DNA of 64,000 nucleotides from an uncultured Planctomycetia bacterium (GTDB lineage: Bacteria > Omnitrophota > Gorgyraeia > 2-02-FULL-51-18). Made by a program: the position numbers and the translations under genes. The DNA is taken from the NCBI GenBank assembly GCA_964606485.1, contig CAZSGP010000001.1:33085-97084 (forward strand), in the 5' to 3' direction. Each line of letters opens with the position of its first letter. Position 1 is the first letter of the stretch. This document shows positions 5,120 to 60,103 of the stretch, in pieces. The notes beneath the pieces are model-generated. The model saw only the letters and a program-made list of their open reading frames with translations, ran no database searches and was not told where the DNA came from.

Positions 5120-5668
5120 ATGCATCACGAAGAATGTTGTGAAGAAAGAACGTTACAAATCGGCCAAAAGGCCCCTGATTTTGCGGCACAGGCACTTATG
5201 CCGGACGGAAGCTTTAAAGAAGTAAAGCTTTCCGATTATAAGGGGAAGTGGGTCGTTCTATTTTTCTATCCTCTCGATTTCACGTTTGTTTGCCCGACGG
5301 AAATTAAGAGTTTCAATCAGCACCTCGATCAGTTTAAGAAATTAAACGTCGAAATCTTGGGTGCCAGCACCGACAGCGTGTATTCTCACAAGGCTTGGTC
5401 CGAAAAAGAATTGGGCAAAATTAATTTCCCGATCTTGGGCGACACCAATCACTCGGTCTCCAGAGGATTCAACGTTCTCTTGGAAGATAAAGGAATTGCG
5501 CTTCGTGGAACGTTTATCATTGATGCCAATGGCGTATTAAAATCCGCCGTCGTCAACGATCTTCCCGTTGGCCGCAGTGTCGATGAGACGCTTCGCACCG
5601 TGCAAGCCCTTCAGACCGGTAAACTTACCGGTTGCGAGTGGAAGCCCGGCGAAAAGACGCTGAATTAA
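5120..5668 (+). CDS. peroxiredoxin (AhpC/TSA family, 2-Cys type)
   Basis: FTFVCPTEI peroxidatic Cys motif and LQIGQKAPDF N-terminus. An AGGAGG-like RBS (aaggagg) lies upstream. Confidence 0.92.
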   Translation: MHHEECCEERTLQIGQKAPDFAAQALMPDGSFKEVKLSDYKGKWVVLFFYPLDFTFVCPTEIKSFNQHLDQFKKLNVEILGASTDSVYSHKAWSEKELGKINFPILGDTNHSVSRGFNVLLEDKGIALRGTFIIDANGVLKSAVVNDLPVGRSVDETLRTVQALQTGKLTGCEWKPGEKTLN

Positions 5669-24500: not shown

Positions 24501-25031
24501 ATTTCAAATGACGGACGCAATCTCTTCGTGTCCAATACGCTCGACGGAACCGTTTCAAAAATTGATTCAAAAACCGGAAAAATGTTAAACACGTTTCAAG
24601 CGGGCACTCTGCCTTATGGGCTTTATGTTTCCAAAAACGGCGAGACGCTTTTTGCATCCGATTATAAAGAGGGCGTTGTGAGAGTGCTAGATACGACATC
24701 CGGAATCGAAAAAGCGAAGATTTCTGTCGGCGACGGGCCGTATTTGCTGGAAGCGGACGCCAAAGAGAACATTCTCCTCGTTTCAAACCGCAAAGATAAC
24801 ACCGTCTCTGTGATTGATATGGCGACGCTGACGGAGCGCACCAAGATTTCAGTTGGGGATCGTCCAATGGGCATGGCCATTACCCCAGAAGGTGATAAAG
24901 CATACGTCGCCAATCAACTGTCCAATACGGTTTCTTTGATTGATCTCAAATCCAACCGGGTTTTAGAAAATATTCCGACTGACTCGGCGCCCTCGCGAAT
25001 TCTTATCGGGGGTCATAAGGAGAAGGGCTGA
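18522..25031 (+). CDS. giant secreted TPS-domain exoprotein (TpsA-like adhesin) with beta-helix repeats, acidic Pro/Glu/Ser linker and C-terminal YVTN beta-propeller
   Basis: Signal peptide, then the filamentous-hemagglutinin N-terminal (TPS) domain with SVLSRVTGGGSSDIFGSLFSNGQLVLINQNGITF (NPNGI-type motif). Long Asn/Thr/Gly-rich parallel beta-helix repeats follow. The EPQPEEQP...KKEEKKDEEQ linker is followed by at least five YVTN-type propeller repeats (AFVTNAFTDEVTV, LFVSNTLDGTVSKID, AYVANQLSNTVSLID). Confidence 0.9.
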   Translation: MHMSGFLKQRVLALCLILVFGIEQAAFCLPQDWTVESGDVSFNVSEDNSMLTINASNNAIINFGSFNIGQGEMVQFIQPGMDSSVLSRVTGGGSSDIFGSLFSNGQLVLINQNGITFHDTANVQVGSLIASTLDIQSSLYLSNQFTFEKLNNSNPASIFNEGTITARDGGSIALLSDQQILNSGSITANLGSIALGVGEKQTISFDNNGLINLIIESPITTSGVGLGITNASTGLLQANGGRINLSVKTLNDVLDTLINNEGIIEATQAVERDGEIVFEANGIVETRGTISTTNLFINDKTTLNAHDTRFNIEGDWNNHGAFNGQESTVEFLGAKNIHYIYGDSDFYNLQAYGSNRAIFFESQKLQRVYGKLDLVGEFANLLKIHSTVLGSRYFLDVLGDSHLDFVDVQDSAQLGGDEILITRSHSDGNISGWNADPEWTNGTGDGFWNTGLNWDSGVVPGGGNTVTFTGNTGLYPQSDGNMTLNANPTIANLTIGAGYAGIFDLNGNTITITNSFTQNGGTVAGTGGGTIEVQAGGASVNGGAAGTWTGGRLFMNVGGSVTWTPGSVSWYDVQANLPGGGCCDNLTINGGDALVTNSFTLNGAELASGNINLQGNLFIANGAYGGGSITLMGTGLQEISQSAGSSPNVIINKASGTARIATGSIDYTFQSGRTFTMTSTGTGVFDLNGKTMIVPNFTQTAGTVTDSVGGGILRVTGAMTGVAGSWTAGSMDLNNAGNFTWTPGSTSYYDVSVHLPGGGCCDNLTVSGGSANVTHDLTLNSVEISSGNINVQRNLIMTANVAGGAGSVTLNGTGAQTISQGAGGSAPNITINKASGVASIDSGSSDISLQSGRTFTITDTGSGNFDLNNKLLITPHFVQTAGTVAGTGGGTLRVTQPGGTSGVAGTWTGGTLHLNQGGNFDWTPGNVNYYNVNVDFYGGGCCDTFRLLGGSQTAVITNNLTLTGGEYMAGIFDVRGNITTAAGWAGGIAWFTLSGSNNQTIDFSLGNDPDGNFTINKSAGTVSLLSDWVLDTAGQDLTITSGALDLDGHNLTVNDQFTIGDNGILRLLGSETVSAIDANTGTIVFDAPGGGALPGIPGGAGSYYGVGFAGAGSWTLGADLNISGNFLLQDTATVNFQNHNLAMGGSFQKSAGSTLSNLGLTTLNATGLAAAKTITTNGYNFSNMTVNGANRQWDMQDQLHVTGDLNIIAGTLNLAGSNLVVDSTFTNNGTLAMIGAETVSSIDAGNVSVSYTGTGTYNSLSLGNSYYNLTFNGAGTWNLNSDLTVTNDLTLTQGTLDLNSRNLAVTNNFVVGASGNLRLQGSETVSAIDTNNGTVTYYGAGNYTAASGGLVTGDTYNNLVFNGPGTWELDNNLTVNNNLTLTQGTVDINAHNLAVTTNFSIGATGNLRLQGAETVSTINTNNGTVTYDGAGNYTAAAGGLVAGDTYNNLVFNGSGTWALDNNLTVNNSLTLTQGTLDLEGRNLSVTGTFSNDAALRLQNTETITFTSGFDTNSGTVIYDGAGTYGALRAAMGNDYHNLTLTGAGTYNLGGVINVEGDFSNTATLNHSGTLILDNASVTSNINGSSTFNNLTINAGKTVRFAAATTTSVTGTFSAQGVALNQITLSSQTPGQTWNINPNAPGALLDYLNIQDSINTSGVLLNPANSVNLGNTTLWFPVPVVADQNTASVSQGVIAIQDSINITQPSNTAPVVSDNTQQPAASPVSEPQPEEQPVSSESKVESDPSAEPAVVEASTETKKEEKKDEEQASESEEPAQETKQTDSKENKPSAAAQSVEVPQEHLQEPMTKSDPFDFDKTLQFGKKGEDYISANTSEVDVNEGSVTVNGHLVYDGEKAYVKNFRDDQRNTVSTSTALHMRGVYIVTSEGMDVLRAKVHQPLNTHNTASPLVDIAESNQKNEVYLFSKGKQLSVMNTNSFNVKDYPVLKEGSSDALISPDDKQAFVTNAFTDEVTVLNLKDHSKAQTFESGAMPLQATISNDGRNLFVSNTLDGTVSKIDSKTGKMLNTFQAGTLPYGLYVSKNGETLFASDYKEGVVRVLDTTSGIEKAKISVGDGPYLLEADAKENILLVSNRKDNTVSVIDMATLTERTKISVGDRPMGMAITPEGDKAYVANQLSNTVSLIDLKSNRVLENIPTDSAPSRILIGGHKEKG
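20028..21654 (+). repeat. three in-frame 540-nt (180-aa) coding repeats inside the exoprotein gene, each with a GGGCCD vicinal-Cys motif
   Basis: Repeat units start FDLNG(N/K) at about 20028, 20574 and 21114. Each contains WTPG...YYDV...GGGCCD. They are diverged at about 50% aa identity. Confidence 0.85.
22317..23126 (+). repeat. three tandem in-frame 270-nt (90-aa) repeats (YNNLVFNG-PGTW...NLTLTQGT-DL...NLAVT...NLRLQG-ETVS...NNGTVTY-GAGNYTAA) with more degenerate copies upstream from about 21780
   Basis: Direct reading of the translated ORF shows units beginning near 22317, 22587 and 22857. They share about 75% aa identity. Confidence 0.85.
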
Positions 25032-44935: not shown

Positions 44936-47900
44936 ATGCCCATATTTAACAAACATTTTAAATTTAAAAAAATTAGTTTCTTGAGAGCTATTTCTTTAGC
45001 TTTGTTAATGGCCTTTATAGGTCAAGATCTTCTCTGGGCTAGTCCTGATCTCAAATTTGAACACCCCACTCAAAATCTCAAATGGGCCAAAAGTATTCTC
45101 CCTAGTCTTCCCGAAACTGTCGTAAAACTAGAAGATGCCTGGAAGGCCTGCCTGCCGGTAGGCAAGGGGCCGGACCCCTCTGGCACCGTGATTCTTATTC
45201 AAGACGCTCACACGAATCCTTCAGGGCAGATGAATTTGGCCAAGACGTTGGATCTTGTCTTATCTAGTCGGCGGGACCTGTCAGCGACTCATATCTTCCT
45301 CGAAGCGGGAACCGGCGACGACTCTCTGTCGTATCTAAGAAAGAACGGCTCTCTCAAAGATCGTCAACAGATCGCCATGAAATATTTAAAAAAAGGCGAA
45401 CTTCATGGAGAGGAATATTTAGATCTTACTTCGAATCACAACATTACGCTCTGGGGCGTTGAAGACAAAGTACTTTACTTAAAAGCACTTCGAGACTACA
45501 AAGTCGTTGCATCCCAAAGAAGCAAGTTTCAAAACACTCTCGATAAAATCAAAGTCACGACTCAAGTTTTAAAACCTAGAATCTTAAACCCACTGCTCTT
45601 GTCTCTTGAAGACAGTCGCCAGAAATTTCAAAAAGGGGAGCTCTCCTTTACGGAATATGCAGATTTTCTTTTGACGCTTCAAAAATCAGTAGAAAGCTCC
45701 CATACTTATTCTCATCTTACGAAGCTCGGCAAATTCAAGGGTTTGGAGCAAAAACTCGCGGCTCGGAAAGTGTCGGCCCGCCATCAAAAAGCGATTGTAA
45801 GCCGGCTTCTTAAAGCGTCCAAGGCGCTAGATTACGCACAGGTGCTGAGCGAGCAAAAAGCGCTCGAGCTTGAACTCTTTCAGGCGCTTATCCAAAACGA
45901 AGAGGAGCGGCGATTCATTGATTGCATTAAACTCCAGGAGTTTTACCGGAAACTTTTTAATTTCTCGCTGACACCGGAGGAATACAAAGAATTTAAAAGT
46001 TTGAACTTAAATATTCAATCGCTGACTGGCTTTCTCAACCGTCAAATTATGTCTCTAGGAAGTTACTACGAGAACGCTTTATTTCTTGAGCCGGGGTTTG
46101 ATGAAGTGATTCAAAAGGCTGAAGACTTCTATGGGTTGACACTCAAGCGCGATGAGAAATTTGTTGAGAATATGCTGAGTCAAAGCGAGAAGCAGCGGGT
46201 GGCGGCGGTAGGTGTCCGTCTCGAAAACACCGAAGGTGGCTTTCGAACGGACAACCGCCAGGCAGCCTGCCTGCCGGCAGGCAGGGACCCGCTGCGGACG
46301 GCCGCCGTTCTGATTACAGGTGGTTACCACACTCCCAATCTCAAAAACATTCTGAAATCCAAAAATATTTCCTACATTTCCCTGATTCCCCAGGTGACTC
46401 AAGAAACCAATCAGAAACGATACGAAAAAATTCTCTTTGGTCAAAATCTTCAAGAGAGCCATTTTCCCAAAATTCAAGGAGCGGTTCCAAGTTCTATGAT
46501 GACGGCCCCTCAGGCTGAGGTTGCGGGGAGTCGGTTGGTGGGGGAAATCGCGGCGCTACCTCGCAATTCCACCCCGGAGGTGGTGATAGGTTGCCAAAAA
46601 GTTAGTTTTGGCGCCCGCCTAGCAATCATCGTCATGCCACATTTGTCGGTTCCGCTAGCGATGAGTAAGCGGGCTTTCGGAGTTGCATCCAGTTTTCTGG
46701 GACACGAAAAAGCGGTGATTGAGGATTATTCGCTGAAGGTTGCGAAAGAGCTGAAGGAAGACGGTTTTAATTTTCACAAAAAAGAATACAAGAACATGCT
46801 TTTCCGGTGTCTCGAAGTGTTATTTGCGCCCGCTTTTTTGGAGAACACCCAACAGAAACTGATTTTGATCGGCAAAATGGAGGATTTTCTTAAAGAATTT
46901 AAAATGATTCTCGGTAATTTCAGACCGGCAAAAAATGAGGAGATGTCGGATTTTTCGGTGGTGGACATCGGCTGGTATTTTCTGGTTCGACTTTTAACCA
47001 TTCAAAGTATGAAAGTGCAGTGGACTCCGCATGATCAGATGGCTGCTCATGATGATTTGCTTAGGCGAGCGATTGCAACGGTGTTGAGAGACGCCAAGGC
47101 CTTGCAGTCCGATGCCAGGTTATTTTTCGAAATCAATAAGGAATTTGCGCTTCGCGCCGAGAAAATGATGAGGGCAGTTGGAAGTCTTTCGTTGTCTCAG
47201 GATTTTCGCACTCGTTTTTTTCATGCGCTTGAATGGTTTGTGAGCTACGTCGAAAATCCCTCTGCGGATTTTGAGGATGACGCCGTTACGGTTAAGGAAT
47301 TAGTTTCTTTTGAGCCGGTGGGCAAGTCGATTGCTAAAGAAGCCGCTGAAAATCGGATCACCGAAGATTTGCTAAATCGACTGCGACTCGTGTTTGCTCC
47401 GGTGGAAAGCCCGGAAGAAGAAATTTGGCACGAACCGCTGGATTACTTTGCAAGTTTGCTGAATCCCGAAAAAATAAGAGTGATGCAACTGTCTCCGGCT
47501 ATGGGTTTTCAAGATCAACCCGTCGATGGTGACACTAGCGGTTTATCGAGAACATTTCTTTTTCAAATTAGGTGGTTTGAGGCGCTAACTCAGAAAAACC
47601 ACAGCTATAACCGGTGGATTGTGCCGGACATGGACGCTTATCTTGAACCACTAATTGCGGAGCTAAGTTCCGACCCGAGTGCCATTGACCGGTGTCTCAG
47701 CAAGCTTCCGGATTATTTCTCAAGCGCCGGACCGTCCCCCGAGCGTATGACCTTGCGCGAGTATTTGGGATTAGACAGCGTCATCTTAAGTGACCGCGCC
47801 CGCATGTCTCTTCTTTTTTTTCAGGAATTAAAAAAAGCGTCAATTCGACAGAATGCCAGCGTATTTTTACTACGCGAGCATGATTTAACTCTGGGTTCCA

Positions 47901-50900
47901 CTGTGGTGAGACACGGAGCTCACAAGAAACGAACCAATCATTTGGAAGGCCTACTTAAAACAGGGCCGGTTTTAGTGCTAGGCTCTTTTGTTTTTGATGT
48001 GGAAACGACGGACGATTGGTTTGGGCTTTGTGTAGGAGACAAACAAATTGTTCGAATCAATCAGGAAAAATCAGATTATGTGGGAGGTTCTACGGCCTAT
48101 CACTTAATGGACGCTGTTGTTTTTACCGTTACGCAACTCGCGGAGAGCTTTAGTTGGGGAGCGGGTTCTTTGAAAACATCGGGCGTTTACATCAAGGATT
48201 CCGAAGGACTTAACCCTAAGCTCAGAGAATTTTTAGAACACGTGAAAAAGGAGCACGAAGGACAGCTTCAGGCTGGGTTGGCCGCTGATTTGAAGCAGCA
48301 GGCCTTGGGTAAAATTCATTATGTTGTTGTTACTAGAGTGACCGACGGGGAACGGGCACCGATTGAAAGGAGTCCGGAGAATAAGCGGACTCCGGCCGGA
48401 TCGTTGAGCGGCGCCCGCCTTGCGGCGTCACCGAAGTTTTGGCGCATAAAAAAATCGGTAGGGGGTTCGAGTGCGACGACAATCGGGGATCTCAAAATGA
48501 GCGCAATTCAAATTGCGGGCGAAATTGTCGACGCCGTGCATGGGCAAGTGCAAAAAGATAAATCTGCCGTGATGAGTGCTGAGAAGATGAAAAATCTGCT
48601 CTCGGGAATTATTGATAACGCTCTCGACGCCATTCAAGATGGTTTTCCTTCTCACAAATACGAAGGCGCGGAAATAGAGATCGAAGCCATTATTGGACAC
48701 GGCCGGCTTATCTTAAAAGTCAGTGATAATGGCGCGCCTTTTAGCAATGAAGCGATGGCGAATGCGGGTCGGCGAAGGTTTACCACTAAAGATCCTGATT
48801 TTGAAGGCAAGATTTATTATGGCGGTAACGGTATTTTTCTTAAGCGCACGTCTGAGCAAGTCAGGGGTTTGGGTGGAAAAATGTCGATTAGAAATTTTGC
48901 CGATCGCCAAGGCTCATGTGTGTCATTTAACCTGCCTTTCGAAGTTCCGTTGGGCGCGCGACTCGCCAGCACCCGTGATTTTAATCAAATGAGTGCGCAG
49001 GAAGTGCGAGCGACTTTGAAGGATCTTAAAGATTCCAAAGAAATAAAGGCCAAATCCATTTCAAAGGAATGGCAGGCTTTTCGAGCGTTCGGGAAGAGAC
49101 GCGTTGCGGGTGTTGTGGTGGTTCGTAAGATTGGCGGACGTTGGAGCTTTTTGATGGCCCGGCGAACCAATCACGGGGACAATGCGGGGCTCTTTACATT
49201 TCCCGCTGGAAAAAAAGAGAGGGGCGAGCCCGTTAAAAAGGCAGCTTCGAGAGAGCTTTCCGAAGAAGGTAAGATTTCGGTAAATTCCAACCGGTTGAAA
49301 ATTATGTTGGATGAATTTTACGGGTATAAACGGGAAATTCTTTTAAATTACTACGTTTTCGTCGACGCATCTGAAGAAAGTGAGATTGCGCCAACAAAGG
49401 AGCTCGACCATTTTACATGGGTTCCTCTGGATGAAATTATTTTGTCGAAACCTGGCGAATCCGCAAAAGCGGTCACGGCGTGGCTTGCGCTCAAAAATAC
49501 AGATTTAGCCAACATTGAAATTATCAGCGGAATTAATCCTAACGGACTCGAAAGCCTCCGAAATGTTTTTGCCAAAGTTTATGAACGCATCGAATCGAAG
49601 GAAAGTGCTGCGGCGCGGCTCGCCCAAGAAAGCCCCAATCCATTTTTTACAAAATCTGAATTTGAAGAAGCATGCCGAGCGTTAAAAGGTGTGGTGGTGA
49701 GAACGCCGTTGAGACGCTTAGAGCGAATGAGTAAGGCCGCCGGAAAACCGGTTTTCCTCAAGAACGAAGCCGAGCAAATCGGGGAAGCGTTTAAAATTAG
49801 AGGTGTTTACTACCAGGTTTATTGCGCGGTCCGCGAAGCAATCCAAGATGGGTTTAATTTTCTGGAAAATTTCTTAATTATTTTCACGCAGTCTACCGGC
49901 AACCACGGAATTGCCATGATTTTATCGGTGGCAAAAATCGTTAATTCGTTTGGGCAAAATAAAATCCTGCCAATTGTTTTTACATTCAAAGAGCTTCCGC
50001 CGGTGAAACGTTTTTTTATGGAGAAGGCGCTCGGCGAATACCGCAAGGCGAGCGGCAACCCCACTGCCGGAAAAATTGTGGACGAGGTGGATGGAAAACA
50101 GTTTGAGCATTACTCGGAAATGGTCCGGCACCGGAATTTATTTAAAGAAGAAAACGCCGCTGTGGCGCGCTACATGTCGCACGCGGACCCGAATATCATG
50201 CTTGGTCACGGCTCGGCGGGAATTGAAATTCATGAGCAATTAAACGAGGCGGGAATAGGGCCGAATAAAAAAGTGACACTCATTCTTCCGATTGGCGCGG
50301 GCGGGCCGCTCGGAATTGCCGCGGCACTTAAGCTTTCAAGGTCAAACGTAACGGTTGTAATGGTTCAGTGTCCGGATTTTGACGCATTTGTGCGAACGCT
50401 TCGGAGCGGAAAAACCCAGACCAACCCTAAGAAGGATCCCAAAGCTTATCTCCTCAACGGAAAGACAGTTTTTTTAAGAACGCTTGCGGACGGCATTGCA
50501 GTGGACGGCCCCGAAAATGAGCGCGCCGTTGAGATTGCACGCGAGTTTGTCGATCTCTCAGTTGTGGTAGATGACGCCCACGCAGTGGATAACGCCGGTG
50601 TCACGGTGTACCGCGATTTGCAAAAAAGTTTTGAAGAGACTCGGAAGCCGGTCGAAAGCGTGCGCGTGGGTGGGACCGCGGCGATTGCGGCACAAGCGAT
50701 TATCAATTTTAAAAATCGTCCCGAAATAAAAAATGCCGACGCAATTGTGGTGCTCGGAACCGAAGGAAATGTGATTGAAGAACTCACTGAGCATTTAGCG
50801 GGGCAGTCGATTCGGTATAGAGACGATGAACTATCAGTTGCGCTTATTCGGCAGGTTGATGAAAAGCCGTTAACCGTCGAGCAGGTATTCAGTTTACCAG

Positions 50901-53221
50901 CGTTTAAAAAATACCCTGGACTTGATGTTGAAGATATCGAAAAGCTAATTCTTTTGGCAAACCGGAACCTTGAAAGGGATCGGGAGAATTTTAGAATTGG
51001 ACTTCGAAATGAAAAAAAAGCGTATCTTTTTAAAATCCGGCTAATGCAAGGCGGGCGCGGATTTTCTACGGCGGGCGCGCGGCTGGCCAAACGCAAGGAC
51101 CCCAAAAATCCCAGACTCAAGTCCTGGACCGCTTCTTCCGAGCTCAACAAAGCGGTGAACGGTCCAATCCGAATCATCGGCCAATCTTTTGGTTTTCCGG
51201 AGACGCCGGAGGAAATGGATGCGTACCGGAGCATTGTCACAGCTTTCAAGACGCATAGCGGTAATAAACCAATTGATGTGACGGTTGAATTCATGGGGTA
51301 TCTCATAGCCAGCTACCTTTTTGGTTACGGAGATTCCCAAAAAACGCTCGAACTGTTGGAAGGCTTGAGAGACAAGCCCAGAGAGCTTCGCGCTGAAATG
51401 TTTAAAGGCGACTTTTTGCCGATGATGGTCGCCGTTGCAACATTGATGCAGGCTGGAAGCGTTCGTCGGCTGATTGAAGAGGGCAAGGGTCCATTTTATT
51501 TATTCGACGAAACTTTTTTTGATGAGGGCGTTAATGAGCGCTGTATAAATTTAAGTGTGGCATTTTGGCCCACAGCCTTAAAGACACTTTACGAAAGTAT
51601 CCAATTTTTGGAGTTTACCGGAAATTTTAAAAAAGCCATCGATGTCTTAGATAATTTTATGCTAGTTATTTCATACATCAAAAGTATCGATTCAGCGTTT
51701 TCGGAAGACGAGCTTTTAGAATGGCGCCAGCGTTTAACAGAAGCGATGCAAACGGTCGAGCAGGCTAGGGCGAATAAATCGGCCGGCGCGCGGCTTGCCC
51801 ACCCCTCGCAAAAAAAAGAAAGGGTTCAGAAAGCATACAGAGGCGTTCTGAAGAGGGCTATTTTGGTGTCATCGCAACTAAAACTGCTGATGCGAACTCA
51901 CAATGAAGTGCGTGACGATCACTTTCGTCGCGACGAAGCCATGCGTGTTTTGCACGACACGCGCCGGGCTCTTTTTTCGAAATCCGATTTGATAAAAGCG
52001 GTCGCTATAGATGACCGGGCGGGATCCGAATCTTGGCTGCCCGAAGAACGCGCCGCATGTATCTGGACACTGTATTTTTTAAGTTCTTCCTTAGATAGTT
52101 GGGTGGGGCAGAGATATTTCAGCGATTACTCAACCGATGAGGAGGAACATAGTCTTCGATTTGACCGTTTAAATTGGCACGAAATTCGTCCTCTGCTTAA
52201 ACAATTGCGAAGAAACCCAAACGAAAGTCCGCTCGTTAAAAGGGCGATCCGCAATGTCTTCCGCCGCGCTCAAGGCTCGAGGCTCGTCAAAGATACTGTT
52301 TATAATTTCAGTCTCCGCGTTTTCGATGCAACCCGGCAGTCGGGCGTTCTGGCCCTCAGTTTAGGTGAGGCGACCGACGTGTTGCTGGTTAATTTTCAGT
52401 TTGACGAAGCTCAAAACATACTTCACCTGACTTATAATGACGGGACCATTTCCGTGAAAAATCCAAAAGCGATTCCACATTCCGACCGTTCGAATTTAAG
52501 CGCGTCTCTCAAAGGATTTGAAATTCCGGAAAAGGAATTGGCGGATTTGCCCGAGGTTTCAGCCCAATTCCAGAAAGCCGCGAATGCATTTAAGTCATTG
52601 CCGGCCGATTTTTTCACGCAGACTTCTAAAATAATCCGCTTGAGAGCGAGCTCATTTATTCGTAACAACTCTCCTCACAAAAAGGAATGGATCCGCTGGT
52701 TTTTGGCGTCGATTGCGGATTTTAAAAAATACGGAGCCACTGTGGTTTTAGAAGAAGACGAAGTTTCCGCGGAGATTATTTCTGCTGCGGGATCGGACGT
52801 GCCTCTTTTTGAATTAAAAAAAGGGGAGAAGCTGCCGTTTGAATCCAAAAATATTTCTCGCATTGAAATCCTTAATCCAAAATCAACCGGATCGTATAAC
52901 GACAAAACATCGACTTATCTATTTGGAATGGAAGCCGGTGGAGCCGGACTGCAAAATATTTCACTTCTCCTGCATCTAGCACTCATCGAAGCCGAGGTGG
53001 GTGTTGAAAATATGCAAGCCGGAAATAAAAAATTTGAAGTGTATCAAAGAGTTTACGAATCGATTCACGGAGCGATTTCAGATCCCGAAGGTTTTGTGGA
53101 GTTTAGCTTAGGAACAGTTATTTTAGGAGCAGCTCAGCATTTTGGGCTTGCAGCTCTTCGTGTCGAGTCGCTGATTCGGGCGACAGCTCTCGGCGCGCGC
53201 ATGGCGCTGCAGGCCGCTTAA
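44936..53221 (+). CDS. giant (2761 aa) exported multidomain protein with embedded GHKL-ATPase-like, Nudix and PLP fold-type-II domains, punctuated by a recurring GAR[LM]A motif
   Basis: N-terminal signal-like segment (KHFKFKKISFLRAISLALLMAFIGQDLLWA). Residues about 1175-1335 carry N/G1/G2-like boxes (IIDNALDAI, VSDNGAPF, YYGGNGIFL). The Nudix box AGKKERGEPVKKAASRELSEEGKI lies near nt 49207-49272. The PLP domain has VVRTPL ... FKIRG ... STGNHG ... PIGAGGPLGIAAA ... ADGIAVD across nt about 49690-50760. The remainder is mostly helical. Confidence 0.85.
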   Translation: MPIFNKHFKFKKISFLRAISLALLMAFIGQDLLWASPDLKFEHPTQNLKWAKSILPSLPETVVKLEDAWKACLPVGKGPDPSGTVILIQDAHTNPSGQMNLAKTLDLVLSSRRDLSATHIFLEAGTGDDSLSYLRKNGSLKDRQQIAMKYLKKGELHGEEYLDLTSNHNITLWGVEDKVLYLKALRDYKVVASQRSKFQNTLDKIKVTTQVLKPRILNPLLLSLEDSRQKFQKGELSFTEYADFLLTLQKSVESSHTYSHLTKLGKFKGLEQKLAARKVSARHQKAIVSRLLKASKALDYAQVLSEQKALELELFQALIQNEEERRFIDCIKLQEFYRKLFNFSLTPEEYKEFKSLNLNIQSLTGFLNRQIMSLGSYYENALFLEPGFDEVIQKAEDFYGLTLKRDEKFVENMLSQSEKQRVAAVGVRLENTEGGFRTDNRQAACLPAGRDPLRTAAVLITGGYHTPNLKNILKSKNISYISLIPQVTQETNQKRYEKILFGQNLQESHFPKIQGAVPSSMMTAPQAEVAGSRLVGEIAALPRNSTPEVVIGCQKVSFGARLAIIVMPHLSVPLAMSKRAFGVASSFLGHEKAVIEDYSLKVAKELKEDGFNFHKKEYKNMLFRCLEVLFAPAFLENTQQKLILIGKMEDFLKEFKMILGNFRPAKNEEMSDFSVVDIGWYFLVRLLTIQSMKVQWTPHDQMAAHDDLLRRAIATVLRDAKALQSDARLFFEINKEFALRAEKMMRAVGSLSLSQDFRTRFFHALEWFVSYVENPSADFEDDAVTVKELVSFEPVGKSIAKEAAENRITEDLLNRLRLVFAPVESPEEEIWHEPLDYFASLLNPEKIRVMQLSPAMGFQDQPVDGDTSGLSRTFLFQIRWFEALTQKNHSYNRWIVPDMDAYLEPLIAELSSDPSAIDRCLSKLPDYFSSAGPSPERMTLREYLGLDSVILSDRARMSLLFFQELKKASIRQNASVFLLREHDLTLGSTVVRHGAHKKRTNHLEGLLKTGPVLVLGSFVFDVETTDDWFGLCVGDKQIVRINQEKSDYVGGSTAYHLMDAVVFTVTQLAESFSWGAGSLKTSGVYIKDSEGLNPKLREFLEHVKKEHEGQLQAGLAADLKQQALGKIHYVVVTRVTDGERAPIERSPENKRTPAGSLSGARLAASPKFWRIKKSVGGSSATTIGDLKMSAIQIAGEIVDAVHGQVQKDKSAVMSAEKMKNLLSGIIDNALDAIQDGFPSHKYEGAEIEIEAIIGHGRLILKVSDNGAPFSNEAMANAGRRRFTTKDPDFEGKIYYGGNGIFLKRTSEQVRGLGGKMSIRNFADRQGSCVSFNLPFEVPLGARLASTRDFNQMSAQEVRATLKDLKDSKEIKAKSISKEWQAFRAFGKRRVAGVVVVRKIGGRWSFLMARRTNHGDNAGLFTFPAGKKERGEPVKKAASRELSEEGKISVNSNRLKIMLDEFYGYKREILLNYYVFVDASEESEIAPTKELDHFTWVPLDEIILSKPGESAKAVTAWLALKNTDLANIEIISGINPNGLESLRNVFAKVYERIESKESAAARLAQESPNPFFTKSEFEEACRALKGVVVRTPLRRLERMSKAAGKPVFLKNEAEQIGEAFKIRGVYYQVYCAVREAIQDGFNFLENFLIIFTQSTGNHGIAMILSVAKIVNSFGQNKILPIVFTFKELPPVKRFFMEKALGEYRKASGNPTAGKIVDEVDGKQFEHYSEMVRHRNLFKEENAAVARYMSHADPNIMLGHGSAGIEIHEQLNEAGIGPNKKVTLILPIGAGGPLGIAAALKLSRSNVTVVMVQCPDFDAFVRTLRSGKTQTNPKKDPKAYLLNGKTVFLRTLADGIAVDGPENERAVEIAREFVDLSVVVDDAHAVDNAGVTVYRDLQKSFEETRKPVESVRVGGTAAIAAQAIINFKNRPEIKNADAIVVLGTEGNVIEELTEHLAGQSIRYRDDELSVALIRQVDEKPLTVEQVFSLPAFKKYPGLDVEDIEKLILLANRNLERDRENFRIGLRNEKKAYLFKIRLMQGGRGFSTAGARLAKRKDPKNPRLKSWTASSELNKAVNGPIRIIGQSFGFPETPEEMDAYRSIVTAFKTHSGNKPIDVTVEFMGYLIASYLFGYGDSQKTLELLEGLRDKPRELRAEMFKGDFLPMMVAVATLMQAGSVRRLIEEGKGPFYLFDETFFDEGVNERCINLSVAFWPTALKTLYESIQFLEFTGNFKKAIDVLDNFMLVISYIKSIDSAFSEDELLEWRQRLTEAMQTVEQARANKSAGARLAHPSQKKERVQKAYRGVLKRAILVSSQLKLLMRTHNEVRDDHFRRDEAMRVLHDTRRALFSKSDLIKAVAIDDRAGSESWLPEERAACIWTLYFLSSSLDSWVGQRYFSDYSTDEEEHSLRFDRLNWHEIRPLLKQLRRNPNESPLVKRAIRNVFRRAQGSRLVKDTVYNFSLRVFDATRQSGVLALSLGEATDVLLVNFQFDEAQNILHLTYNDGTISVKNPKAIPHSDRSNLSASLKGFEIPEKELADLPEVSAQFQKAANAFKSLPADFFTQTSKIIRLRASSFIRNNSPHKKEWIRWFLASIADFKKYGATVVLEEDEVSAEIISAAGSDVPLFELKKGEKLPFESKNISRIEILNPKSTGSYNDKTSTYLFGMEAGGAGLQNISLLLHLALIEAEVGVENMQAGNKKFEVYQRVYESIHGAISDPEGFVEFSLGTVILGAAQHFGLAALRVESLIRATALGARMALQAA

Positions 53222-53635: not shown

Positions 53636-54100
53636 ATGAAAATTGTCGATTTCTTAAACGATAAGGCGATTGTCGCCGACCTCAAGTCTTCTAATAAAGA
53701 AGACATTCTGCGAGAGCTTGTCGATATTCTCGCGAAGGCTGAAGGGATTCGTAATAAAGAAGAGCTCGTCAAGACGCTCTTAGCGCGTGAGGCGCTGGGC
53801 TCGACCGGCATCGGTCAAGGCGTGGGTATTCCGCATGGTAAAACTAACTCCGTTAAAAAATTAGTCGCAGCTTTCGGACTGTGCCGTCAAGGTGTAAACT
53901 TCGAAGCGTTGGACGGCGAGCCGGTTTATATTTTCTTTTTGCTCGTCGCCCCCGAAGATTCTGCCGGACCGCATTTAAAGGGACTCGCCCGGATTTCCCG
54001 TTTGCTCAAAGATAAATTTTTCAGAGAATCCCTCAAAAGCCTCACCGACGAGAAGATGATCTACAAGCTTCTCAAAGACGAAGACTCCAAAAAGCCGTGA
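53636..54100 (+). CDS. ptsN: PTS IIA-Ntr-type nitrogen regulatory protein
   Basis: PTS_EIIA_2 fold with the conserved His (GIGQGVGIPHGK). Length is 154 aa. Confidence 0.88.
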   Translation: MKIVDFLNDKAIVADLKSSNKEDILRELVDILAKAEGIRNKEELVKTLLAREALGSTGIGQGVGIPHGKTNSVKKLVAAFGLCRQGVNFEALDGEPVYIFFLLVAPEDSAGPHLKGLARISRLLKDKFFRESLKSLTDEKMIYKLLKDEDSKKP

Positions 54101-54156
54101 AACCCGGGGGAAAGCTTTCCGCGCCCCTCTACCAGAAGACGATAAGGTAAAAATCA

Positions 54157-55425
54157 ATGGGTCTTTTTAAATGGCTTTACCCAGGCATGCGCGTCAAGCG
54201 GTGGATCGTGCTGTGCTCTTTGGGAATTATCTTATCTTCGATGGGCTTTGTCCTTACGATTATTGAAGATCAGAAAACGAGCGGCAGTCTCGTGGTGCTC
54301 CTGGGTGTTGGGCTTGTAGCGATGAGCATCCGCAAAATTATTAAATCCGTTGTCACCGTTTTATTGCCTCAGCGCGAAAATGAACTCGTTAACATTATGT
54401 ATCAGAAGCGGTATCTCGAGCGCGGGCCGAAAGTCGTGGCCATTGGCGGCGGCTCCGGACTCTCCGTTTTACTCCACGGTTTAAAAGAGTTTACTTCCAA
54501 CATCACGGCTGTTGTGACGGTGGCTGACGACGGCGGATCTTCCGGGCGGCTGCGCAGTCAATTTAATATCCCGCCTCCGGGAGACATTCGCAACTGCTTG
54601 GTTGCGCTGGCTGACTCCGAAGCGCTGATGTCCGAACTTTTTCAATTTCGCTTCGAAGAATCGGGCGCGTTCGAAGGTCATAATTTTGGAAATCTTTTTA
54701 TTTTAGCGATGCTCAAGGTCACCGGAGGTGATTTTGAAAAAGCCATTCGCGAATCCAGTAAAGTTTTGGCGATTCGCGGACGCGTGGTGCCCTCTACTTT
54801 AAAGAGAGTGACGTTGACGGCTGAGCACAAAGACGGAACGCGCACCGAGGGCGAGAGCAATATCGGAAAAGCCAAAAGCCCAATTGAGAGACTTTATTTA
54901 AAACCGGAAGGGTGTGCCGCAGCGCAAGACGCGATTACCGCCATTGAGCAAGCAGACGTGGTGGTGATTGGCCCCGGAAGTTTGTACACGAGCATACTGC
55001 CTAATTTACTCATTGATGATTTGAGTGCCGCCCTTGCGCGTTCGGGCGCCCCAAAAGTTTATGTGTGCAATATCATGACTCAAGCCCACGAAACCGATAA
55101 TTTAACCGCTTTCGATCACGTAAATGCGATTATTGAACACACGCGTCCCGATGTTTTAAGCCACGTGCTCGTCAACACCGGCACGATTCCGCCCAGCATT
55201 CTCAAAAAGTACGCTACCGAAGAAGCATTTCCAGTGACGGCGGATGTGGACCGCATTAAAAGTCTAGGTTACGAGGTGATTGCCACGAACATTGCGCTTT
55301 CAGCAAACATGGTTCGTCATAACTCAAGACGCGTTGCGAGAATTGTGGTGGAACTCGTTCAGACGCTTAAGAAAAAGCAGGTTGAGGAAAAAAAGAGGCC
55401 AAGACCCTCGTATGCCCGCCGGTAA
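54157..55425 (+). CDS. YvcK/UPF0052 (CofD-like) gluconeogenesis-factor family protein with N-terminal two-TM extension
   Basis: VVAIGGGSGLSVLLHGLK and the downstream conserved YvcK core. The first roughly 75 aa are predicted to be membrane-embedded (LCSLGIILSSMGFVLTII ... LVVLLGVGLVAMSI). Confidence 0.85.
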   Translation: MGLFKWLYPGMRVKRWIVLCSLGIILSSMGFVLTIIEDQKTSGSLVVLLGVGLVAMSIRKIIKSVVTVLLPQRENELVNIMYQKRYLERGPKVVAIGGGSGLSVLLHGLKEFTSNITAVVTVADDGGSSGRLRSQFNIPPPGDIRNCLVALADSEALMSELFQFRFEESGAFEGHNFGNLFILAMLKVTGGDFEKAIRESSKVLAIRGRVVPSTLKRVTLTAEHKDGTRTEGESNIGKAKSPIERLYLKPEGCAAAQDAITAIEQADVVVIGPGSLYTSILPNLLIDDLSAALARSGAPKVYVCNIMTQAHETDNLTAFDHVNAIIEHTRPDVLSHVLVNTGTIPPSILKKYATEEAFPVTADVDRIKSLGYEVIATNIALSANMVRHNSRRVARIVVELVQTLKKKQVEEKKRPRPSYARR

Positions 55426-57322
55426 AAAGAAAAATTTCATTTTTTGTGTTCACGCTCACCAGCCCGTCGGAAATTTCGGCTCTGTTTTTGAAGAGGCTTA
55501 CGAACGCTCCTATCGTCCATTTTTTGAAGTCGTTTCAGCGCACCCTGCCGTAAAAGTTTCCGCTCATTTTTCGGGAAGCCTGTTGGATTGGCTTGCCGAA
55601 CATCACCCGGAATTTATTTCAAAGCTCAAGTCCATGGCTCAAAGCGGCCAAATTGAATTTTTGGGCGGCGCTTATTACGAGGCGATTTATGGCATGATTC
55701 CGGCTAAGGATTTAAAAGGACAGATTCTGAAGATGCGCGCGAAGTTGCGCGAGTTTTTTGGCGTAGAGTTTGAAGGGGTCTGGCTCACCGAGCGCGTGTG
55801 GGATGCCCAGCTGCCAGCGCTTTTAAAATCAGCGAAGGTAAATTTTACAATTCTCGATGATCTGCACTTTGAAAATAGCGGGGTTCAGGCGCCGGTGACT
55901 GGTTTTTACAAAGCGGGGACCGGGAAAAACTCGCTTGATCTTTTTGCGTCGATGAAAGATCTACGCTATCTTATGCCGTTTCAGAAGGCCGAGAAAACGC
56001 TCGAATTTTTTCACGCGGCGACAGCTCAAGAAAATGATGTTTGGGTTTTTGCCGATGATTGTGAGAAGTTCGGTATGTGGCCCGGAACCTACGACTGGGT
56101 GTACGGCCAAAAGTGGCTCGACCAATTTTTTACGCTGATTGAAAATGATGAGCAGATTCAGATGTGTCATTTTTCGGAAGTCCGAAAATCCTGCAAATCC
56201 AAAGGCACTCTGAGCATTAAACACGCCAGTTACACTGAAATGATGGAGTGGTCGGGAGGGCGTTTCTACAATTTTTTTGAAAAGTACGCGGAGAGCGGGT
56301 ACATGCGCGACCGTATGGAATCGGTGAGTCGCCGCGCCCAGCGCTCAAAGGAAGCACTTAATTTTCTCTATAAAGCGCAGTGCAACTGCTCGTACTGGCA
56401 CGGCGTATTCGGAGGGCTTTACTTGCATCACCTGCGTTCGGCGGTATTTGAAAATCTCATCGCTGCCGACAAAATTTTGGAAAAAAAGCCGCTCGCGTCC
56501 AAAGAAAAACTTGGGGCCGAGACGCATTATAAAATCCGTCAGAACGAGATCGTTTCTTATTTGAACGCAGGCTTAGGCGGCGCGCTCGAGGAGATTGATT
56601 ATCTTCCAAAGACGGTGAATCTGATGTGCAATTTAATGCGCCGTAAGGAAATTTATCACGAGGTGGCGCATTCTAAAAAAGCCAAAGAGGGGTCCGATGA
56701 GCCGCTCTCGATTCATGACATGCTTGGCTCTAAAGAGAAAGATCTGGATAAGCACCTTTTTTATGACCCCTATCGTCGCTTTTCTTTTTTGGATCACTTT
56801 TTTGGCTCGACTATCTCAAATGAAGAATTTTTGAGGGCAAGCTACATTGAAACCGGTGATTTTGCCGGAAAGCCGTTTCGAGCGAAGCAGGTGCGGGTGA
56901 CGGGTAGGTCGGGTTGGGTGCTTGAGCGAAAGGCGGGAGCGCTGTTGGTGCAAAAGACCTTCTTGCCTTTAAAGGCCAATACGCTCGAAGTTCGCTACCG
57001 GATTAAAAATGTTTCAAAGAAAACATTTTCGGCGGTTTGGGGAACGGAGTTTAATTTTTCGATCGGTGATCCCTACGCGAATCAGGGTGTGAGGGTGGAG
57101 GGAGTCCGGGAGTGGGTGTTTAAAGATTCCTGGAGAAATCTTGAGATTTCACTCACGACTGACCGGGAAAGCACCTTCTTGACCGCGCCTATTGAAACCG
57201 TTTCAGAGTCAGAATCGGGGCTTGAGCGCACATTTCAGGAGCTCGGGGCCTTGGTTCAAGTGCCACTCCGGCTTGAGCCGGGAGCCTTGCACGAACAAAT
57301 CTTTAAACTGGCGATCAATTAA
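55412..57322 (+). CDS. glycoside hydrolase family 57 protein (alpha-glucan-acting enzyme)
   Basis: N-terminal CVHAHQPVGNF and WLTERVWD are typical of GH57. The start is chosen at the internal MPAGKKK (55412); the ORF-track start at 55280 lies wholly inside yvcK. Confidence 0.82.
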   Translation: MPAGKKKNFIFCVHAHQPVGNFGSVFEEAYERSYRPFFEVVSAHPAVKVSAHFSGSLLDWLAEHHPEFISKLKSMAQSGQIEFLGGAYYEAIYGMIPAKDLKGQILKMRAKLREFFGVEFEGVWLTERVWDAQLPALLKSAKVNFTILDDLHFENSGVQAPVTGFYKAGTGKNSLDLFASMKDLRYLMPFQKAEKTLEFFHAATAQENDVWVFADDCEKFGMWPGTYDWVYGQKWLDQFFTLIENDEQIQMCHFSEVRKSCKSKGTLSIKHASYTEMMEWSGGRFYNFFEKYAESGYMRDRMESVSRRAQRSKEALNFLYKAQCNCSYWHGVFGGLYLHHLRSAVFENLIAADKILEKKPLASKEKLGAETHYKIRQNEIVSYLNAGLGGALEEIDYLPKTVNLMCNLMRRKEIYHEVAHSKKAKEGSDEPLSIHDMLGSKEKDLDKHLFYDPYRRFSFLDHFFGSTISNEEFLRASYIETGDFAGKPFRAKQVRVTGRSGWVLERKAGALLVQKTFLPLKANTLEVRYRIKNVSKKTFSAVWGTEFNFSIGDPYANQGVRVEGVREWVFKDSWRNLEISLTTDRESTFLTAPIETVSESESGLERTFQELGALVQVPLRLEPGALHEQIFKLAIN

Positions 57323-57327
57323 GCTTT

Positions 57328-57609
57328 ATGTTTATTAAAAAGAAGATTAAAATCAAGAACCCGCAGGGCCTGCACGCAAGGCCGGCTTCGGTATTTGTGA
57401 AGATTGCCAACAAATACGAGTCGGACATTAGTGTCAAAAAAGGCTCAGAAAAAGTAAGCGGGAAGTCCATTATGGGTCTTTTGATGCTGGCCGCAAGCCA
57501 AGGCAGCACGATTGAGATTGAAGTCAGCGGGTCGGACGCTATTTTAGCCATGAAAGAATTAGAGGAGTTTTTGTTAAACGATTCCGATGAAAAGCCAAAA
57601 GTCAGTTAA
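57328..57609 (+). CDS. ptsH: phosphocarrier protein HPr
   Basis: Active-site GLHARPAS (His15). Length is 93 aa. Confidence 0.92.
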   Translation: MFIKKKIKIKNPQGLHARPASVFVKIANKYESDISVKKGSEKVSGKSIMGLLMLAASQGSTIEIEVSGSDAILAMKELEEFLLNDSDEKPKVS

Positions 57610-59347
57610 ACTTAAAGGAATTGCCGCGTCGCCTGGCATTGCTGTCGGGAAAGCGTTTTTGCTCGATTCCGAAGAGCTCTCGATCCCGCGCCGTAGCATC
57701 AAAGAATCCGAAATTCCCAAAGAGATCACGCGCTTTGAAGATGCTCTTACGCGTACACGCGCGGAAATTCTTAACATCCGCGACAAGATCACCGATGAAA
57801 TCGGCAAAGATCACGGCGATATTTTTAATGCCCACCTTTTAGTCATTGAAGACCGCGCGCTTATTGAGGAAGTGATTGAGCGCGTTAAAAAAGAAAAACT
57901 CACCTGCGATTACGTATTGTCGCAAGTTCTTAAAAAATACATCCAATCCTTTTTAAAAATTGACGACGAATACCTACGCGAGCGCGTCAGCGATATTAAC
58001 GACGTTGGCCGGCGCATCATTCGCCACCTCGTCGGAGGACGTAAAACATCTTTGGCGGACATTAAAGAAAAAGTAATTGTGGTGGCGTATGACCTGTCAC
58101 CCAGCGACACCGCCGTGATGCACCGCAAGAACGTGATCGGCTTTGTGACGGATATCGGTGGACGCACTTCTCACACCGCCATCATGGCGAAATCTTTAGA
58201 AATTCCGGCCGTGGTGGGTATTGAAGTCGCGACACATCGCATTAAGGAAGGCGATACGATTATTGTCGACGGCGCTCAAGGCGTGGCCATTGTAAATCCG
58301 ACCGCCGCAGATCTTGCCAAATACAAAACCGACAAAGCCCGTTACGTGGAGTTTAATCGCGGCCTAAAGAAAATGAAGGACCTGGCTTGCGTGACGTCGG
58401 ATGGCCGGCGCATCGAACTTGCGGCCAATATCGAACTTCCAGAAGAAACCACGTCGGTGCTAGCGCATGGCGCCAATGGCATCGGGCTTTACCGCAGCGA
58501 ATTTTTGTACATGAACCGTTCCGGTCTTCCCAAGGAAGAGGAGCAGTTTGAGGCCTATAAAAAAGTGGTCAAAGAAATGGCGCCCAAGCCTGTCATTATC
58601 CGCACCTTTGATTTGGGCGGCGATAAATTCTTATCACATTTAGAAATGCCGCACGAAATGAATCCGTTTTTAGGCTGGAGAGCGATCCGGTTTTGTCTCG
58701 CGCGCCCTGAAATTTTCAAAGTTCAGCTCAGAGCCATTTTAAGAGCGAGCGCTTTCGGAAAGCTGCGCATGATGTACCCGATGATTTCGGGGATTACCGA
58801 GCTGCAGCAAGCCAATAAATTACTCGCGGAAGCCAAGCAGGAACTGCGCGCTAAAAAAATGTCCTTCGACGACAAGATTGAAGTCGGGGCGATGATTGAA
58901 ATCCCTTCTGCTGCACTCACCTGTGACATCCTGGCGCGGGAAGTGGATTTTTTCAGTATCGGCACAAACGATCTTATTCAATACGCGCTGGCGGTGGACC
59001 GTATCAACGAAAAAATTGCCTATCTGTACGAACCGGCGCATCCTGCGGTTTTGCGTCTCATTAAAATGATTATCGAAACGGGACACGCTAAAAATATCTG
59101 GGTCGGGATGTGCGGCGAGATGGCAGGGGACCGGCTTTTAACGCCGCTTCTTGTGGGTTTGGGTTTGGATGAGATTTCTGTATCGCCCTTGCTTTTGCCG
59201 GAAGTTAAAAAGATTATCCGCTCGCTTAATTTTAAAGAATGCCGCCAGATGGTCGACGAAGCGCTTAAGCTGAGTTCCGGCGAAGAAGTGATGGAATTTT
59301 TAAAATCCCAATCGCTCAAGCTCATTCGAAAAACGGCTGCTTCCTAA
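57587..59347 (+). CDS. ptsI: phosphoenolpyruvate-protein phosphotransferase (PTS Enzyme I)
   Basis: Phosphohistidine domain (GGRTSHTAIMA) and the PEP-utilising domain. Length is 586 aa. Confidence 0.93.
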   Translation: MKSQKSVKLKGIAASPGIAVGKAFLLDSEELSIPRRSIKESEIPKEITRFEDALTRTRAEILNIRDKITDEIGKDHGDIFNAHLLVIEDRALIEEVIERVKKEKLTCDYVLSQVLKKYIQSFLKIDDEYLRERVSDINDVGRRIIRHLVGGRKTSLADIKEKVIVVAYDLSPSDTAVMHRKNVIGFVTDIGGRTSHTAIMAKSLEIPAVVGIEVATHRIKEGDTIIVDGAQGVAIVNPTAADLAKYKTDKARYVEFNRGLKKMKDLACVTSDGRRIELAANIELPEETTSVLAHGANGIGLYRSEFLYMNRSGLPKEEEQFEAYKKVVKEMAPKPVIIRTFDLGGDKFLSHLEMPHEMNPFLGWRAIRFCLARPEIFKVQLRAILRASAFGKLRMMYPMISGITELQQANKLLAEAKQELRAKKMSFDDKIEVGAMIEIPSAALTCDILAREVDFFSIGTNDLIQYALAVDRINEKIAYLYEPAHPAVLRLIKMIIETGHAKNIWVGMCGEMAGDRLLTPLLVGLGLDEISVSPLLLPEVKKIIRSLNFKECRQMVDEALKLSSGEEVMEFLKSQSLKLIRKTAAS

Positions 59348-59353
59348 CGCTTC

Positions 59354-60103
59354 ATGGTCGCTATTATTCTTGCCGCAGGTTACGCCACACGACTTTACCC
59401 TCTTACCGAAAACCAACCCAAATGCCTTTTAGAGGTTGCGGGAAAAACCATTCTCGACGCGCTTTGTGAAAAGTTAGATGCGCTCGAAAACTTGAACCGC
59501 ATTGTGATCGTTACGAACGCCAAGTTTTATCGCATCTTGACGGATTGGAGTCAAAAAGCGCCTCACCGCGTGCGGATTGAGGTGCTAAACGATGGCACGA
59601 CGTCCAATGACACGCGTTTAGGGGCAACCGGTGACCTAAGTTTCGCCATTCAACAATCCAAAATTGACGATGATATTTTGCTGCTTGCTAGCGACAATTT
59701 ATTCGAAGAAGATCTAAAAGGGTTCACGAGTTTTGTCCATTCCCAGAAAAATGAAATCTGTGTGGCCGTGTATGACATTCAAGATAAAAACCTCGCTAAA
59801 AACACCTTCGGTGTGCTCGAACTGGATGCAAAATCACAGGTCGTGAGCATTGAAGAAAAGCCGGCTGAGCCTAAATCGAGTCTCATTGGGATGGGGATTT
59901 ATTATTTACCTAAGACTAAAATCAGTCGGATTGGACAGTATTTGGCTGACCCTGAGGCCAAAGACGCGCCGGGTTATTTTTTCCGCTGGCTGCTCGATTA
60001 TGAAAAAATTTTCGGTTTTCGATTTAAAGGCCTATGGTATGATATCGGGAATTTGGAAGCGCTTCAAAACGCGAATATCATTTTTTCGAAGCTAAAACAT
60101 TAA
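59354..60103 (+). CDS. sugar-phosphate nucleotidyltransferase (NTP_transferase domain)
   Basis: N-terminal AIILAAGYATRLYPLT G-rich loop typical of RmlA/GlmU-N-type enzymes. Confidence 0.8.
   Translation: MVAIILAAGYATRLYPLTENQPKCLLEVAGKTILDALCEKLDALENLNRIVIVTNAKFYRILTDWSQKAPHRVRIEVLNDGTTSNDTRLGATGDLSFAIQQSKIDDDILLLASDNLFEEDLKGFTSFVHSQKNEICVAVYDIQDKNLAKNTFGVLELDAKSQVVSIEEKPAEPKSSLIGMGIYYLPKTKISRIGQYLADPEAKDAPGYFFRWLLDYEKIFGFRFKGLWYDIGNLEALQNANIIFSKLKH

Follow-up and report, generated by a model that had tools for sequence, protein, structure and literature searches.

Viral polyproteins carry short motifs at the junctions of their products. The flanks of these motifs are free to vary, and the motifs co-evolve by lineage with a protease that lies within the chain, as in picornavirus 3C, flavivirus NS3, and alphavirus nsP2. 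The protease of the MARTX toxins, in turn, has Leu specificity. In a MARTX toxin, a giant chain holds variable, shuffled effector modules joined by unstructured linkers, and a protease within the chain cuts these linkers and thereby releases the modules (PMC6254334). For the giant proteins of the phylum Omnitrophota, published work suspects post-translational cleavage, and one paper states that the cleavage points are unknown. Here we analyzed a 64,000-nucleotide stretch of DNA from an uncultured bacterium of this phylum (hereafter, the window; assembly GCA_964606485.1, contig CAZSGP010000001.1, positions 33,085 to 97,084), in which an 8.3-kb open reading frame (ORF) at 44936..53221 (+) encodes a protein of 2761 amino acids (aa) plus stop with a recurring pentapeptide, GAR[LM]A. 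This motif delimits domains throughout a very large, so far unnamed protein family, the named members of which are mostly from Omnitrophota.

The first-pass annotation, made from the window alone, had reported six copies of the pentapeptide in the ORF, and all six proved exact in their amino acid and nucleotide positions as well as in their codons. It had also held that such a number was very unlikely to arise by chance. The only point in favor of chance, or of a compositional effect in a chain with much Gly, Ala, Arg, and Leu, is that the residues of the motif are common ones. Composition predicts 0.010 copies in this protein, and none of 20,000 protein shuffles contained two or more. Conservation in homologs, which the annotation had named among the checks to make, was evident: across 195 family sequences, we counted 591 exact copies against 2.7 expected (a 218-fold enrichment), whereas six scrambled orders of the same residues gave only 2 to 7 copies each. 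The shuffles and the permuted-order controls together rule out chance and composition, to which we assign practically no probability. Within the window, GAR[LM]A was absent from all other real ORFs; the sole other exact GARLA, at nt 31286, is read in a + frame, and at this place every listed ORF belongs to the - strand.

The copies in the ORF separate a series of modules, all on the + strand. The chain opens with a basic stretch and a hydrophobic segment (44936..45043, aa ~10–36), which ends in ...LLWA, with SPD following. This segment is the sole strongly hydrophobic one outside the folded domains; lysines precede it and an invariant Ala35 lies near its end, and by hydrophobicity and simple criteria we judged it to be a signal peptide or signal anchor. 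The conserved N-terminal domain (N-domain), a candidate peptidase, follows at 45053..46465 (aa ~40–510). Beyond it, aa 511–560 are modeled as disordered, a stretch that contains a loose copy of the motif, GSRLV (46526..46540, aa 531–535), and leads into the first exact copy (site 1, GARLA, 46610..46624, aa 559–563). Module A (46625..48409, aa 564–1158), in which no domain was recognized, extends from there to site 2 (GARLA, 48410..48424, aa 1159–1163). Module B (48425..48952, aa 1164–1339) contains a HATPase_c domain at aa 1216–1336 and is closed by site 3 (GARLA, 48953..48967, aa 1340–1344), four residues past the end of that domain. Module C (48968..49609, aa 1345–1558) holds a NUDIX domain at aa 1387–1510 and is separated by a variant site, AARLA (49610..49624, aa 1559–1563), from module D (49625..51073, aa 1564–2046). 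The latter carries a domain of the pyridoxal phosphate (PLP)-dependent PALP family, threonine/serine dehydratase-like, at aa 1587–1940.

The second half of the chain continues with site 4 (GARLA, 51074..51088, aa 2047–2051), module E (51089..51784, aa 2052–2283), site 5 (GARLA, 51785..51799, aa 2284–2288), and module F (51800..52273, aa 2289–2446); Pfam recognized no domain in modules E and F, and its matches in the whole protein were limited to HATPase_c, NUDIX, and PALP. Another loose copy, GSRLV (52274..52288, aa 2447–2451), marks the exact start of the conserved C-terminal domain (C-domain; 52289..53218, aa ~2452–2761), and the last exact copy (site 6, GARMA, 53192..53206, aa 2753–2757) lies inside the terminal tail helix of that domain. 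The ORF thus has three looser copies (aa 531, 1559, and 2447) in addition to the six exact ones. The first-pass annotation was right that the motifs bracket the recognizable domains, with HATPase_c between 1159 and 1340, NUDIX between 1340 and 1559, and PALP between 1559 and 2047, and the additional AAARLAQ that it placed at nt 49610 is real, positioned exactly between NUDIX and PALP. Its remark that basic residues usually come after the motif did not survive: this is so for two or three copies here, and in the family the next residue is mostly E, A, or G. The core residues of the Nudix box (G-x5-E-x7-R-E-L-x-E-E) in module C and the PLP-lysine motif FKIRG in module D could both be read from the sequence, and on these features the cargo enzymes look intact.

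Compared with the described systems, this protein shares with the MARTX toxins the combination of shuffled enzymatic modules and a short linker site on one giant chain; the in-chain protease is only a candidate here. The MARTX effector RRSP, moreover, has the same TIKI fold as the one modeled for our N-domain. The window protein differs from MARTX in that Pfam detected neither a C80 cysteine protease domain nor RTX repeats in the 2761-aa protein, and in that the candidate protease is N-terminal and of another fold, with a site of the form small-small-Arg-Leu/Met-small. The cargo of its family also consists mostly of ordinary metabolic and regulatory enzymes, and the family occurs in uncultivated Omnitrophota, with many paralogs per genome. 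As in viral polyproteins, a short consensus site recurs at the junctions of independently folding modules. The chain also has at its N-terminus an invariant domain with a modeled TIKI-type hydrolase fold, a putative peptidase. Unlike viral polyproteins, the family is cellular and chromosomal and nearly absent from viral contigs, and the fold of its candidate protease is another one.

The giant proteins already described from Omnitrophota (the Archaeovorin and dockerin types, and the "multi-enzyme metabolic" type of a 2026 complete-genome preprint) resemble this protein in phylum, in the great length of their ORFs, in an N-terminal signal or anchor, and in their strings of metabolic enzyme domains. 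They are encoded by ORFs above ~20 kb or comprise 30,000–147,000 aa, and C39 or subtilisin-type domains are invoked for them, whereas the present ORF spans 8.3 kb and is devoid of the C39 peptidase, dockerin, and SecA-like domains of the Archaeovorin and dockerin types. No recurring linker motif appears where two Omnitrophota preprints use the words "motif" or "linker", nor in the giant-ORF passages of a third paper. LPXTG signals share with our motif a sharp five-residue core and unconserved flanks, and sortase signals are read by a dedicated enzyme. Sorting signals such as LPXTG and PEP-CTERM, however, are single and C-terminal and have a hydrophobic helix and then a basic tail behind them, whereas the copies described here are internal, repeated, and without hydrophobic segments after them, so that they do not have the form of C-terminal sorting signals.

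A search with the window protein retrieved 155 relatives, all of them giant (1,500–4,750 aa), and nearly all the named ones came from metagenome-assembled genomes of Omnitrophota. When a profile was scanned against 1.84 billion representatives, 9,944 clusters with the N-terminal domain were identified, 6,751 of them at E<=1e-30. The domain was N-terminal in all of the best 150 clusters listed, with lengths up to 7,011 aa, and the family as a whole ranges from 1.5 to 7 thousand aa (kaa). What the relatives have in common with the query is confined to the first ~500 aa and, in some of them, the last ~300 aa; between these ends every protein is different, and the modules are clearly shuffled among paralogs. 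The cargo of the relatives includes PEP (phosphoenolpyruvate) carboxykinase, phosphoglycerate kinase, phosphomannomutase, kinases, methyltransferases, sigma factors, and CsrA, as well as Nudix hydrolases; glycolytic enzymes are represented in it. A scan of species-representative genomes yielded 127 loci for the family, and several paralogs occur per genome; for each of three assemblies, the retained loci include five. In four loci (L015, L049, L052, and L065), a motif-bearing giant ORF immediately precedes another member and continues beyond the 5′ boundary of the locus, which suggests a tandem arrangement of paralogs in some genomes. Full-text literature searches turned up no earlier description of the motif or the family, nor of polyproteins in Omnitrophota.

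We then examined where the motif lies in these proteins. In 133 full-length proteins, it was nearly absent from aa 1–500 and showed a sharp peak at aa 520–620, directly past the N-domain. A second peak was found 280–400 aa from the C-terminus, directly ahead of the C-domain; the last 20–280 residues, that is, the C-domain itself, were again nearly devoid of the motif, which appeared once more in the last 20 residues. The equivalents of these three positions in the query are the sites at 559, 2447, and the terminal GARMA, the first of which is accordingly the family-wide "first site". The spacing between sites is domain-sized (median 270 aa), and in two members, P0019 and P0003, each Pfam domain falls between two successive sites and often stops just short of one, by a few residues. 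Segments conserved between paralogs contained 201 sites against 439 expected, a two-fold depletion. Residues beyond the five motif positions carry almost no information and the flanking residues are unconserved, but the flanks are less hydrophobic than random positions of the same proteins (0.283 vs 0.325, p 9e-24), a dip limited to about 10 residues on either side. Sites also turn over: ~60% are kept at aligned positions between proteins of 40–60% identity, and only 12% at 20–30% identity.

Outside proteins with the N-terminal domain, the motif is essentially missing. Among 78 genomic loci, ORFs with the N-domain held 315 motifs in 177 kaa, compared with 43 in 224 kaa for the other ORFs of at least 200 aa, and about 35 of these 43 lie in truncated or frameshifted giant ORFs.

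At the DNA level, every synonymous codon occurs at the motif, including AGA/AGG, which account for 24% of Arg. The 148 GARLA copies in the genomic loci are written as 116 distinct 15-mers, and the 39 copies of one genome as 33 versions. A GC-rich DNA core occurs in a frame- and strand-specific manner, 97 times in frame and 16 times out of frame. This synonymous diversity, together with the specificity for frame and strand, indicates that selection acts on the peptide, in agreement with the annotators' view that conservation is at the protein level. The choice of codons at the motif is nevertheless skewed. In this ORF, Gly is encoded by GGC in 6/6 copies and the GC content at third codon positions (GC3) is 0.83 at the motif vs 0.48; across 200 copies, the frequencies are 0.68 for GGC (background 0.36), 0.56 for GCG (0.35), 0.52 for CGG (0.20), and 0.69 for YTG (0.40). 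Such a skew, along with the shuffling of modules, would fit a signal that resides in the nucleic acid, either as a junction that recombination of module cassettes leaves behind or uses, or as a GC-rich mRNA element that slows the ribosome at domain boundaries, with conservation of the peptide being secondary. The range of synonymous codons, the restriction of the DNA core to one frame, and the lack of conservation in the flanking DNA and protein all argue against this explanation, which we regard as very unlikely. A DNA-level repeat was rejected as the primary cause on the grounds of synonymous diversity and frame specificity, and what remains is a residual codon preference. As a separate observation, the skew toward GGC GCG CGG YTG GCG, each about twice its background, could reflect ribosome pausing, mRNA structure, or decoding accuracy.

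The motif varies by lineage. Among the variants found in the family, AARLA ranks second in frequency, and members without the exact motif repeat a variant of their own: GTRL[SAT] (six times), xRTSP (nine times), SGSR (five times), [SA]GAR[VGA]A, or GSRL[AS]. The proteins P0066, P0117 (the one with RTSP), P0051, and P0112 and the loci L007, L039, and L026 together are the sources of the quite different GTRL[SAT], xRTSP, and SGSR motifs and of the degenerate or motif-free paralogs described next. Paralogs within one genome share one mix, namely GARL[AS] in a first genome, more AARLA than GARLA in a second, and GARAA plus GARMA in a third; assembly prefix CAYJVC01 denotes a GARAA genome and CAMDWQ01 an AARLA genome. 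A fourth genome has a degenerate G.R.A (33 times), and in the paralogs of a fifth no motif was detectable, although the invariant residues of the N-domain are all kept. The element that stays constant across the variants is small-small-Arg. This lineage variation is how a recognition site that co-evolves with its reader behaves. The variants agree as far as the Arg and diverge beyond it, and on this ground Arg would be the P1 residue if the site is cut, and the cut would probably fall right after it.

The N-domain is the candidate for such a reader. Its structure model (aa ~40–510) shows an alpha/beta core of the TIKI/TraB/EreA/ChaN type, split by a helical insert of ~250 aa, and the central parallel beta-sheet of this modeled core is the feature common to ChaN, Ere, TraB, HopBA1, and RRSP. 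Eleven residues are invariant (D90, H92, N94, E123, E176, Y181, R405, D406, G462, G463, and H465), and D90-x-H92, E123, and H465, which are invariant in 183–194 sequences, are placed just past the strands at 84–90, 118–122, and 457–462. Active members of the TIKI fold have a 2His/2Glu constellation, which in RRSP consists of E-x-H, a Glu about 28 residues later, and a distal His (PMC6254334). The D-x-H...E...H of the N-domain matches this catalytic pattern with Asp in place of the first Glu, as a match of sequence and secondary structure only. On this model, the N-domain is a candidate peptidase of the TIKI fold.

No Pfam or NCBIfam model recognizes the N-domain at threshold: PF04187 and PF01963 were among the curated models without a significant match, and NCBIfam gave none. 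When PF04187 was compared with 32 members, sub-threshold matches were obtained in 9/32 (best E 0.011, 16 bits vs a cut-off of 27.7), and these were co-linear, with protein aa ~420–480 falling on profile positions 142–203. Searching the sequences of the PDB with a profile of the N-domain returned nothing relevant, and in a Foldseek search against the PDB the helical insert dominated the matches. The TIKI/TraB/PrgY/EreA/ChaN superfamily includes the Tiki Wnt protease, the Ras/Rap1 endopeptidase RRSP, and erythromycin esterases. Compared with these, the N-domain has Asp for the first Glu, the ~250-aa helical insert, and kilobases of cargo fused to it; the described members cleave other proteins or small molecules and are not known to cut repeated sites in their own chain.

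One loop of the N-domain, modeled with low confidence, also contains an in-frame palindromic repeat (46196-46309 (+), aa ~422–458; VAAVGVRLENTEGGFRTDNRQAACLPAGRDPLRTAAV). The copy in the ORF folds at -72.4 kcal/mol (z -5.5) and has no Rfam match. An intergenic copy of 64 nt, 95% identical, is located at 5699-5762 (-), just 3′ of the ORF 5120..5668, where it sits in a long terminator-like hairpin with a T-run after it. In the paralogs P0002 and P0013, the same loop carries the same peptide insert, although outside it the domain is only 42–53% identical. The repeat looks like a repetitive extragenic palindromic (REP)- or miniature inverted-repeat transposable element (MITE)-like element that is tolerated within a coding loop.

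Taken together, a terminal hydrolase, intact variable modules, a five-residue linker signal, and drift by lineage form the layout of autoprocessing, and for this reason we rank first the reading that the chain is a polyprotein whose N-terminal TIKI-like domain cuts it at the motifs. We hold this reading as a serious possibility that still stops short of probable, and we infer the cutting itself, the enzyme, the bond, and the cellular site. The frame common to the members consists of a signal or anchor helix, a domain of ~470 aa with a modeled hydrolase fold of the TIKI/TraB/EreA type, variable cargo modules, and the conserved C-domain. A sequence of the form [G/A]-[A/S]-R-[L/M]-[A/S/T] in a short polar linker at every module boundary would serve as a site-specific processing signal, and the N-domain would act on its own chain or on paralogous chains by recognizing the small-small-Arg core. 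Cutting of the linkers, probably right after Arg, would release the cargo modules, which in the window protein would be an ATPase-like domain, a Nudix hydrolase, a PLP enzyme, and three modules without a recognized domain. The first-pass annotation had proposed a processing, cleavage, or docking signal of a polyprotein. The enrichment, the position in linkers at boundaries, and the lineage variation support several parts of this proposal, but they do not separate cleavage from docking. It had also expected a cognate protease elsewhere in the genome, and our candidate sits in the same chain.

Several points weigh against processing by the N-domain, and most of them would suit a separate protease acting in trans, with the N-domain doing other hydrolase work, such as that of an esterase, at the membrane. 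Motif-poor members keep the catalytic residues of the N-domain. The TIKI-type fold is not diagnostic of peptidase activity, since it includes non-peptidases. The variant tracks the genome and not the individual protein, and this pattern, considered as a test of cis versus trans action, fits an enzyme of either kind; a mix shared by all paralogs is what one enzyme per genome would produce. On the other hand, a trans-acting enzyme would be expected to have substrates outside the family too, whereas the motif is essentially restricted to proteins bearing the N-domain. Nor did we find a protease gene in the window, or one recurring beside family genes in the 78 loci. We consider a separate protease unlikely.

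The C-terminal end of the chain adds a further difficulty for the processing reading. At least 24 members carry the conserved C-domain at their very C-terminal end. Its model has a generic Rossmann-like fold with a terminal helix, and the structural matches (macrodomain, HAD) are likewise generic; it has no Pfam match and no invariant catalytic or diagnostic residues. The C-domain was also considered as the protease; with such generic matches and no invariant catalytic residues, the comparison was uninformative. The tail helix has the consensus ...ALPPxxRLxxxxxxQxxRLAxRMAEQAA, and most listed C-termini end in [A/S]-A, often with Gln ahead. The GARMA of the query aligns with the "RMA" of this consensus, which identifies the last copy as a built-in feature of the family and not as an ordinary linker site. 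Processing does not explain this copy; the tail resembles the linker motif and might be a mimic of the substrate or the product.

The same tail is one reason to think of a docking or recognition motif that stays uncut in the linkers. Bound by the N-domain, the C-domain, or an external partner, such a motif would help to fold or assemble the modules, to tether them, or to hand them over, and the tail would be its internal mimic. A motif-like sequence in a conserved C-terminal tail, where cutting makes little sense, is in keeping with this idea, and a sharp five-residue signal, a linker position, and lineage variants fit any recognition motif. However, no peptide-binding domain was recognized, and a strict small-small-Arg core with free flanks, present at every boundary including the one right past the invariant hydrolase, is the classic layout of polyprotein cleavage. 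Docking appears to us unlikely.

The genes around the giant ORF offer no common partner. Its neighbors in the window encode a Liv-type ATP-binding cassette (ABC) transporter, EIIA and EI of the phosphotransferase system (PTS), CofD, a GH57 enzyme, a resistance-nodulation-division (RND) pump, and the nuo operon, none of which recurs beside family genes in the 78 loci. The cluster directly downstream, at 53636-60103 (+), is carbohydrate-related and recalls the sugar-metabolism cargo of many family members; it encodes PTS EIIA, a CofD-family protein, a GH57 alpha-amylase/4-alpha-glucanotransferase, PTS enzyme I, and a sugar-nucleotidyl transferase. A second very long ORF at 18522-25031 (+) encodes 2169 aa with an N-terminal two-partner secretion (TPS) domain and C-terminal beta-propeller repeats. 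It contains no GARLA and is unrelated to the giant-protein family.

Giant ORFs are a hallmark of Omnitrophota, and [G/A][A/S]R[L/M][A/S/T] with its lineage variants provides a testable candidate cleavage code for them, together with a candidate enzyme for ~10,000 representative clusters. In its broadest form, which we put forward more tentatively than processing of the window protein, Omnitrophota would encode thousands of exported self-processing polyproteins, in which an N-terminal endopeptidase of the TIKI fold cuts a genome-specific small-small-Arg pentapeptide in each linker and frees a customized set of intact metabolic and regulatory enzymes; the modules might be released extracellularly or into the cells of a host or prey. 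If this is true, giant proteins could be split by computation into their real functional units, and the presence of ordinary enzymes strung behind a signal sequence would be explained. It would also add a self-processing role to the TIKI fold, supply many natural pairs of protease and site with differing specificity for engineering, and stand beside viral polyproteins and MARTX toxins as a bacterial counterpart that relies on another protease fold. Should the motif serve docking instead, it would still be an undescribed short linear motif that organizes a very large protein family.

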